This document shows positions 2,157-4,182 of a stretch of DNA of 33,823 nt, piece by piece. Made by a program: the position numbers and the translations under genes. Under the pieces are notes generated by a model. The model saw only the letters and a list, made by a program, of their open reading frames with translations. It was not told the origin of the DNA and searched no databases. The stretch is taken from the IMG/VR virus record IMGVR_UViG_2877251553_000003; one strand, 5' to 3'. The stretch's first letter is position 1. Each line of letters begins with the position of its first letter. Source of the stretch: a virus. Lineage: Duplodnaviria; Heunggongvirae; Uroviricota; Caudoviricetes.

Positions 2157-2360
2157 TGAAGTGGCACACTGAATTTGGCCACCTGAACAGAGGTGATATG
2201 CTCACCTCAGAACAACACAGGTGCTCCAATGAAAAAAAGAAATTTTAGCGCAGAGTTTAAACGCGAATCCGCTCAACTGGTTGTTGACCAGAAATACACG
2301 GTGGCGGTGATGCTGCCAACTTACTGATTTAGTGTATGATGGTGTTTTTGAGGTGCTCCA

Positions 2361-2636
2361 GTGGCTTCTGTTTCTATCAGCTGTCCCTCCTGTTCAGCTA
2401 CTGACGGGGTGGTGCGTAACGGCAAAAGCACTGCCGGACATCAGCGCTATCTCTGCTCTCACTGCCGTAAAACATGGCAACTGCAGTTCACTTACACCGC
2501 TTCTCAACCCGGTACGCACCAGAAAATTATTGATATGGCCATGAATGGCGTTGGATGCCGGGCAACTGCACGCATTATGGGCGTTAGCCTCAACACGATT
2601 TTACGTCACTTAAAAAACTCAGGCCGCAGTCGGTAA
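2361..2636 (+). CDS. insA: IS1 InsA
   Basis: 91-aa [25 protein letters not shown]... with the zinc-finger-like CxxC...CxxC. Confidence 0.9.
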
Positions 2637-2680
2637 CCTCGCGCATACAGCCGGGCAGTGACGTCATCGTCTGCGCGGAA

Positions 2681-3058
2681 ATGGACGAACAGTGGGGATA
2701 CGTCGGGGCTAAATCGCGCCAGCGCTGGCTGTTTTACGCGTATGACAGGCTCCGGAAGACGGTTGTTGCGCACGTATTCGGTGAACGCACTATGGCGACG
2801 CTGGGGCGTCTTATGAGCTTGCTGTCACCCTTTGACGTGGTGATATGGATGACGGATGGCTGGCCACTGTATGAATCCCGCCTGAAGGGAAAGCTGCACG
2901 TAATCAGCAAGCGATATACGCAGCGAATTGAGCGGCATAACCTGAATCTGAGGCAGCACCTGGCACGGCTGGGACGGAAGTCGCTGTCGTTCTCAAAATC
3001 GGTGGAGCTGCATGACAAAGTCATCGGGCATTATCTGAACATAAAACACTATCAATAA
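2681..3058 (+). CDS. insB: IS1 InsB (normally expressed as InsAB' by -1 frameshift at the A6C motif near 2612-2618)
   Basis: [22 protein letters not shown]... 125-aa ORF; A6C motif upstream. Confidence 0.85.
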
Positions 3059-3334
3059 GTTGGAGTCATTACCCACGGTGGCAGATGCCGCCAAAGCTAT
3101 GGATGTTGGCCTTTCCACAATGACAAGATGGGTCAAACAACTGCGTGATGAGAGTCAGGGCAAAACACCAAAAGCCTCTCCGATAACACCAGAACAAATC
3201 GAAATACGTAAGCTGAGGAAAAAGCTACAACGCATTGAAATGGAGAATGAAATATTAAAAAAGGCTACCGCGCTCTTGATGTCAGACTCCCTGAACAGTT
3301 CTCGATAATCGGGAAACTCAGAGCGCATTATCCT

Positions 3335-4174
3335 GTGGTCACACTCTGCCAAGTGTTCGGGGTTCATCGCAGCAGCTACAGATACTGGAAAAACCGTCCT
3401 GAAAAACCAGACGGCAGACGGGCTGTATTACGCAGTCAGGTACTTGAGCTACATGGCATCAGCCATGGTTCGGCCGGAGCAAGAAGCATCGCCACAATGG
3501 CAACCCGGAGAGGCTACCAGATGGGACGCTGGCTTGCTGGCAGGCTCATGAAAGAGCTGGGGCTGGTCAGCTGTCAGCAGCCGACTCACCGGAATAAACG
3601 TGGTGGTCATGAACATGTTGCTATCCCTAACTACCTTGAAAGGCAGTTCGCCGTGACCGAGCCAAATCAGGTGTGGTGCGGTGATGTGACCTGTATCTGG
3701 ACGGGTAAGCGCTGGGCGTACCTCGCCGTTGTTCTCGACCTGTTCGCAAGAAAACCAGTGGGCTGGGCCATGTCGTTCTCGCCGGACAGCAGGCTCACCA
3801 TGAAAGCGCTGGAAATGGCATGGGAAACCCGTGGTAAGCCCGGCGGGGTGATGTTCCACAGCGATCAGGGCAGTCATTATACGAGCAGGCAGTTCCGGCA
3901 GTTATTGTGGCGATACCAGATCAGACAGAGTATGAGCCGGCGCGGAAACTGCTGGGATAACAGCCCAATGGAACGCTTCTTCAGGAGTCTGAAGAACGAA
4001 TGGATGCCGGTGGTGGGTTACGTAAGCTTCAGCGAGGCAGCTCACGCCATAACGGACTATATCGTTGGATATTACAGCGCACTAAGACCGCACGAATATA
4101 ACGGTGGGTTACCCCCAAACGAATCGGAAAATCGATACTGGAAAAACTCTAACTCGGTGGCCAGTTTTTGTTGA
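3335..4174 (+). CDS. IS911 orfB (DDE catalytic part of the OrfAB transposase)
   Basis: 279-aa ORF with the IS3-family integrase-like core ([16 protein letters not shown]); overlaps the orfA 3' end in the -1 frame. Confidence 0.85.
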
Positions 4175-4182
4175 CCACTTCA

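Follow-up and report, generated by a model that had tools for sequence, protein, structure and literature searches.

The stretch of DNA analysed here (IMG/VR record IMGVR_UViG_2877251553_000003; all 33,823 nucleotides of it are called the window) is a defective P2/186-like prophage (Peduoviridae) in a chromosome of Shigella dysenteriae type, where it is flanked by rcdA and ybjL. Within it a copy of the insertion sequence (IS) IS911, itself interrupted by a copy of IS1, occupies the exact joint of a 1,838-bp deletion, located in the early lytic operon, that fuses a truncated cII gene to a truncated dam gene. Sister Shigella genomes have the same IS911 junction without IS1, and IS911 was in place before IS1 arrived, as an earlier interpretation made from the letters of the window without database searches (the sequence-only reading) had proposed. 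For the origin of the deletion we favour an adjacent deletion anchored on the right end of IS911. The events belong to ordinary IS-driven prophage decay, a kind of event already known; known elements are doing known things, in a genus with a known IS expansion and at a locus already present in public genomes. The case matters little beyond bookkeeping and is a clean example of insertion sequences dismantling Shigella prophages; what it adds is the precise extent and gene content of the deletion, the preserved stages, a second deletion, and a possible IS1 hot spot.

The 1,838-bp deletion and the nested insertion

The sequence-only reading placed the left flank of IS911 at about codon 59 of cII and the right flank at about codon 60 of dam, and proposed that the flanks be aligned to an intact related prophage so that the deletion could be sized. 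We ran this alignment with the intact prophage of Escherichia coli UPEC-245U (NZ_CP049845), which is 99.6-99.8% identical to both flanks. The left flank broke off exactly after codon 59 of the 169 in cII; the right flank opened with the third base of codon 73 of the 285 in dam, about 13 codons away from the earlier estimate, and the remnant ran from there to the stop codon (this part of the alignment starts at position 4497 of the UPEC-245U locus, L003, where dam occupies 4279-5136). Missing relative to the UPEC-245U prophage were exactly 1,838 bp, made up of cII codons 60-169, fil, the genes for DUF5347, DUF2732 and a TraR/DksA zinc-finger protein, and dam codons 1-72, with the family names confirmed by Pfam. 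The same 1,838 bp lay between the two breakpoints in all three intact relatives compared (the UPEC-245U prophage, phage vB_EcoM-813R9, and Klebsiella phage 4LV2017), and both annotated records, UPEC-245U and vB_EcoM-813R9, showed four whole genes in this stretch. Phage searches with the flanks matched Peduoviridae records, in the order Cox then cII on the left and Dam then replication protein on the right. The cII remnant, which ends in a TGA stop formed by the opening bases of the IS911 left inverted repeat (IRL), matched positions 2-53 of the 146 in the Pfam profile Phage_CP76 (E = 1.3e-17), and the dam remnant matched positions 83-253 of the 253 in MethyltransfD12 (E = 5e-49). By these partial matches the first is a gene fragment of the Phage_CP76 family, predicted to be no functional member of it, and the second is likewise a MethyltransfD12 fragment.

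In the reference the left breakpoint falls between ...GGCTGCTT and ACCGATC..., and the right one between ...ATCTCG and CGCCAGAG, with zero shared bases; given this lack of microhomology, the deletion did not arise by slippage. In contrast, a separate 65-bp deletion in gpA (joint at 4926-4935; L003 5250-5314 in the reference) lies between 10-bp direct repeats, AGTTGCGCCG, and frameshifts the gene. Both endpoints of the 1,838-bp deletion coincide exactly with the IS911 termini. The sequence-only reading had named, among the observations that would overturn it, a related intact prophage with cII and dam naturally short and adjacent; we considered this together with an assembly artefact as a way of doing without any deletion. 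In the annotated intact relatives, however, cII encodes 169 and dam 285 amino acids, four genes intervene in the prophage whose flanks are nearly identical to those of the window, and the junctions recur in at least 10 independent assemblies, long-read complete genomes among them. The UPEC-245U alignment and the 12-locus marker table given below refute this explanation, and its probability is practically nil.

IS911 was reconstructed in silico by removing IS1 and one copy of the IS1 target duplication, which gave an element of 1,249 bp encoding an intact 100-amino-acid OrfA and, by way of an A AAA AAG slippery site, a 389-amino-acid OrfAB. Its terminal inverted repeats are imperfect, with TG...CA ends (TGAAGTGG... 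and ...CCACTTCA) and matching blocks in the first ~36 bp. The reconstructed element is 99.3% identical over 1,249 bp to the copy in NZ_CP053247 that RefSeq annotates as "IS3-like element IS911 family transposase", and Pfam HTH_Tnp_1, rve and rve_3 matched the corresponding IS911 gene calls in sister loci. The window copy thus resembles IS911, an IS3-family element first isolated from Shigella dysenteriae, in its length, its TG...CA ends, its orfA/orfB organization with a −1 frameshift, and its HTH_Tnp_1 and rve (DDE) domains, but differs from a typical copy in lacking the 3-bp target duplication and in having its orfA split by IS1. Direct reading of the two flanks (...GCTGCTT on the left, CGCCAGA... 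on the right) found neither a 3-bp nor a 4-bp duplication around IS911, the abutting triplets being CTT and CGC; the absence of matching duplications had been noted before and stands. The IS911 relative ISEc52 in E. coli AZ153, by comparison, has TAA on both sides, the usual 3-bp duplication. The window copy lacks one because it is seated at a deletion joint, and the missing duplication rules out a simple insertion, not the identity of the element as IS911.

IS1 begins with GGTGATGCTGCC... at 2306 and ends with ...GGAGTCATTACC at 3073, and its terminal inverted repeats (GGTGATGCTGCCAACTTACTGAT...) are about 23 bp long. As the sequence-only reading had claimed, it lies in IS911 orfA between two clean copies of CACGGTGGC; the chance probability of such a 9/9 match is ~4e-6, and sister genomes have the empty site with a single copy. 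Target duplications of IS1 measure 9 bp, occasionally 8 bp. Because the duplication is perfect and empty sites exist in sister strains, a simple insertion of IS1 in place is the best reading. Pfam Zn_ribbon_InsA, HTH_Tnp_IS1 and DDE_Tnp_IS1 matched the same IS1 gene calls in locus L007, which is 99.97% identical to the window where the two overlap. In its 768 bp, its inverted repeats, its insA/insB' genes with an A6C site, and its 9-bp duplication the window copy is the same as known IS1; the element itself is ordinary, and worth remark only for having another insertion sequence as its target. Codon 26 of orfA, which IS1 splits, lies upstream of the frameshift site, and translation from the native start can thus yield neither OrfA nor OrfAB. 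The transposase is disrupted, as had been proposed: IS1 inactivates the OrfA and OrfAB of its host element, and the two IS911 ends are left intact. E. coli K-12 likewise has an IS911 copy inactivated by a nested second insertion sequence, in that case IS30 (PMC9333248), whereas in the window it is IS1 that interrupts the element, in codon 26 of orfA.

A search for other IS911 copies carrying the same IS1, also proposed earlier, was made with the 32-amino-acid peptide that fuses truncated OrfA to IS1 sequence (OrfA'-IS1). In four complete Shigella genomes the peptide occurred solely at the prophage locus, and it was found as well on two contigs of enterotoxigenic E. coli (ETEC), L021 and L025, adjoining CS6 fimbrial genes. 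Since the IS911 on both contigs has IS1 at the identical position with the identical 9-bp duplication, we considered whether gene conversion or homologous recombination had brought the window IS1 in from another such copy, for example the plasmid copy beside the CS6 genes. Between ETEC and the window, however, the IS1 copies show 11 differences in 768 positions and the surrounding IS911 only 1 in 344, and the window IS1 is just 1 position in 768 away from another S. dysenteriae IS1 (locus L014); the restriction of the fusion peptide to the prophage in the Shigella genomes also speaks against transfer, which we consider quite improbable. Given the same disparity, 11/768 against 1/344, the S. 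dysenteriae and ETEC copies of IS1 look like independent insertions of different variants. On one of the ETEC contigs (AQEX01000018; L021, 7039 onward) the IS911 with IS1 at this site is also broken by an IS30-like element, forming a triple nest.

Order of events in related Shigella genomes

Markers were tabulated for 12 Shigella loci retrieved via the exact OrfA'-IS1 peptide and the exact truncated cII product (cII'). The 59-amino-acid cII' product, with the stop supplied by IS911, occurred in 207 blocks of public assemblies, and the contigs read from its matches (n = 24) were Shigella chromosomes; window positions 1-12,156 matched the CP026807 locus at 99.97% identity over the overlap. Going by plasmids whose accession numbers adjoin theirs, four of the chromosomes besides CP026832 may belong to S. 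dysenteriae strains 204/96, ATCC 49347, ATCC 12037 and ATCC 9753. The junction between cII' and IS911 was present in all 12 loci and that between IS911 and truncated dam ('dam) in 10. In six loci IS911 was free of IS1 and held a single CACGGTGGC; its length was 1,249 bp in four of these and 1,248 bp in L012, and it was unmeasured in L014, which is without the right junction. The occurrence of IS1-free IS911 with the same junction in sister loci demonstrated that IS911 was in place before IS1 and that the IS911 junction is older than, and independent of, IS1. Three IS1-free loci (L009, L011, and L012) lacked the 65-bp gpA deletion; two other loci without IS1 had it, as did all IS1-bearing loci keeping the region, the gpA region itself being deleted in L013 and L014. 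The marker table places this deletion, with perfect nesting, after the IS911 junction and before the IS1 insertion, and we infer that IS911 and the 1,838-bp deletion came first, the 65-bp gpA deletion next, and the IS1 insertion last. An IS66-family insertion in gpA, with its left junction in 10 of the 12 loci (all that retain the region), is as widespread as the stage of IS911 and the 1,838-bp deletion.

Among 5,426 complete E. coli genomes the cII'-IS911-'dam arrangement occurred in none; the exact IS911/IS1 left junction was likewise absent from complete E. coli genomes, in which only nearby insertions at +7/+10 bp were seen. Klebsiella pneumoniae plasmid NZ_CP055108 and S. flexneri plasmid NZ_CP026804 were considered as further carriers of the nest and rejected, as they had different junctions or mere adjacency. 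Public genomes hold an unusually complete series at this locus, comprising the IS911 joint, the 65-bp deletion, IS1, and a further deletion at the same IS911 end, and the arrangement may be of use as a lineage marker for non-type-1 S. dysenteriae.

Origin of the deletion

The sequence-only reading held that an adjacent deletion had removed the rest of cII, any intervening genes, and the dam 5' end. The loss itself is established by the three intact relatives; the mechanism is only favoured, recombination between two IS911 copies giving the same structure. We propose that IS911 made a simple insertion and that an adjacent deletion, dependent on transposase and with the right end of the element as its anchor, came afterwards, and put the chance that this is correct at about even. 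IS911 would first have made a simple insertion into cII. Its right inverted repeat (IRR) would then have acted as the fixed anchor of an adjacent deletion taking all up to dam codon 73, probably through an attack within the same molecule from an IS911 end or from the IRR-IRL junction of a short-lived tandem dimer. In S. dysenteriae 14 this right end would later have anchored a further deletion of 2,741 bp, with transposase acting in trans.

The second deletion was found in CP026832 (L013, ~12203), which is S. dysenteriae 14 ATCC 49346 (PMC10132075). There the IS911 right end, itself intact, abuts the base equivalent to window position 6924, which lies within the tnpB gene of the IS66-family element, and 2,741 bp (window 4183-6923) are gone in a deletion nested on the first. 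As the IS911 copy in this genome already bears IS1, any transposase for the second deletion must have acted in trans. Starting as it does from the same IS911 right end, the second deletion favours an adjacent deletion anchored on an IS end. The behaviour of IS150, another member of the IS3 family, is similar: in the long-term evolution experiment its copies without target duplications marked adjacent deletions, which often grew over time, and fusion of orfA to orfB in an IS3-family element raised adjacent deletions (PMC11708052). In that experiment as in the window an IS3-family element stands at a deletion joint without a duplication, and IS150 deletions grow stepwise from the resident end, as 1,838 bp followed by 2,741 bp more would here; the present case differs in being a natural Shigella lineage and not a laboratory time series, with its first step, the simple insertion, unobserved. 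Tandem dimers have been described for IS911 (Turlan et al. 2000, as cited in PMC9333248), and junctions of abutted inverted repeats are active in promoting rearrangements in the case of IS30 (PMC9333248). On pig E. coli plasmids (H161-H166, e.g., NZ_CP062900 18649-18731) we observed IS911 right and left ends abutted within 83 bp, in what looks like the IRR-IRL junction of a tandem dimer.

Several points weigh against the anchored deletion. Intermediates were sought with the real locus and with synthetic junctions (IS911 right end, CTT, and downstream cII; dam, CGC, and IS911 left end). A cII::IS911 insertion flanked by CTT with the region from fil to dam intact was present in none of the 24 contigs read or the 5,426 complete E. 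coli genomes, and in the same complete genomes the synthetic junctions for simple insertions gave no single-piece match. The final structure is identical to the product of recombination between two direct-repeat IS911 copies, and which end served as anchor is deduced solely from the second deletion. A two-step route, in which a new copy inserts nearby and homologous recombination follows, is reportedly documented for IS150 among the copy-out-paste-in elements.

By such recombination, same-orientation copies of IS911 in cII (at CTT) and in dam (at CGC) would have undergone a RecA-dependent exchange, with loss of the 1,838 bp and one copy, leaving a hybrid IS911 with mismatched flanks. This would yield exactly what is observed, namely intact ends, no duplication, and no microhomology; Shigella genomes are rich in IS copies, and recombination between identical insertion sequences is a frequent cause of missing duplications (PMC11708052). 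Locus L014 (CP026828), in which the same IS911 has an unrelated right flank, suggests exchange between copies, and exchange involving this IS911 copy probably also occurs. However, a second same-orientation insertion within 1.8 kb would be needed, and another such insertion within 2.7 kb for the second deletion in CP026832, and no related locus contained a two-copy intermediate. As two separate nearby insertions in the same orientation are required, we rank two-copy recombination second, as a serious candidate whose probability is nonetheless clearly below even. The unrelated right flank in L014 is 518 bp long (11427-11944) and is followed by IS1 and then by cbpA/tor genes, implying a larger rearrangement there.

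IS911 might instead have inserted with a concurrent deletion, being captured at a double-strand break or deletion joint so that no staggered cleavage took place and no duplication ever formed. The window structure is compatible with such a route, which has been proposed for IS5 and IS481 events without target duplications, but all 14 cases of the IS3-family element IS150 could be explained as stepwise adjacent deletions (PMC11708052). The later deletion from the same end shows stepwise erosion at this IS911 copy, and we think capture improbable. The anchored adjacent deletion remains our preferred explanation.

IS1 insertions in orfA and other lesions of the prophage

Within 10 bp of IS911/ISEc52 orfA, three positions account for at least four IS1 insertions, apparently independent and all in the same orientation (last four rows of Table 1). 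From this clustering of sequences we suggest, tentatively and thinking it rather doubtful, that IS911-family orfA contains a true IS1 insertion hot spot; the side result is mildly new and a small testable lead. If it is true, one insertion sequence would preferentially disable another, and the disabled copy would stay mobilisable in trans and keep eroding its surroundings. The idea that IS1 was drawn to a target resembling its own end was tried and rejected as evidence: GCAGATGCCGCCAA and GGTGATGCTGCCAA match at 11 of 14 positions, about 4.6 such matches are expected by chance in the window, and the resemblance is speculation only.

Table 1. Features of the window, followed by IS1 insertions in IS911-like orfA (coordinates are those of the window unless a locus is given)
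Feature	Position	Strand	Remarks and basis
Truncated cII (186-type lysogeny activator), 59 codons + TGA	1980..2159	+	Pfam; alignment to UPEC-245U cII
IS911, whole, including IS1	2157-4182	+	Start TGAAGTGGCAC, end CCACTTCA; read from sequence
IS911 left part	2157..2305	+	IRL from 2157, orfA codons 1-26, ATG at 2229; sequence, inverted-repeat and open reading frame (ORF) reconstruction
IS1 target duplication CACGGTGGC, left copy (9 bp)	2297..2305		Sequence
IS1, 768 bp, apparently intact	2306..3073	+	Same orientation as IS911; sequence, ORFs, Pfam
insA, 91 amino acids	2361-2636	+	ORF reading
A6C slippery site of IS1	2612-2618	+	IS1 position 307; sequence
insB frame, open	to 3058	+	ORF reading
IS1 target duplication CACGGTGGC, right copy (9 bp)	3074..3082		Sequence
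IS911 right part	3074..4182	+	Remaining orfA to 3308, orfB to 4174, IRR end 4182; sequence, Pfam
A AAA AAG −1 frameshift site of IS911	3257-3263	+	ORF reconstruction
Truncated dam (D12-class N6-adenine methyltransferase)	4183..4822	+	N-terminal 72 codons missing; Pfam, UPEC-245U alignment
gpA (replication endonuclease) remnant	4819..6278	+	Frameshifted by 65-bp deletion; cut at 6278/6279 by IS66-family element
IS66-family element, 2,439 bp	6279-8717		GTAAGCG... ends; orfA, tnpB and DDE genes; inserted in gpA with 8-bp duplication CATTGACG
Second IS1	21793-22560		90.6% identical to first IS1; GGTAATGCTGCC at both ends
IS1 insertion, S. dysenteriae prophage IS911	2297-2305		
IS1 insertion, ETEC CS6-plasmid IS911	L021 6068		Same nucleotide, different IS1 variant
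IS1 insertion, ISEc52 in E. coli AZ153/AZ167	L004 ~3156		7 bp downstream
IS1 insertion, ISEc52-like element on 1332KP plasmid	L027 1551		10 bp downstream

The window spans almost the whole prophage, which compared with the intact one is heavily degraded. From int to ogr it is colinear with the UPEC-245U prophage, at 99.1-99.8% identity over the shared segments, except for IS-linked lesions. The UPEC-245U prophage at rcdA-ybjL and vB_EcoM-813R9 (compared over a 10-kb stretch from int to gpA) share with it the attachment region and the order int-cI-apl-cII-fil-DUF5347-DUF2732-traR-dam-gpA, whereas the window copy has the IS911 deletion, the 65-bp gpA deletion, the IS66-family insertion, a loss of baseplate and tail-fibre genes linked to IS1, and an int gene interrupted by a nonsense codon. 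This codon is W208* (TGG to TAG; int is at L007 7592-8644), and the window begins at this stop (1-3, − strand); the cI repressor gene is intact (1031-1606, − strand). The cII-dam deletion is one of several independent lesions. The prophage has lost cII, fil, and three small early genes and has no functional dam; with the gpA, int, and tail lesions added, it is predicted to be immobile and unable to replicate, with cI intact. For annotation, cII, dam, gpA, and int are to be treated as pseudogenes, and IS911 as one element interrupted by IS1. The second IS1, around which no 9-bp duplication was present, sits at the joint where ~4.6 kb of baseplate and tail-fibre genes are missing, and is followed by 495 bp (22561-23055) whose orientation is opposite to that in the intact prophage.

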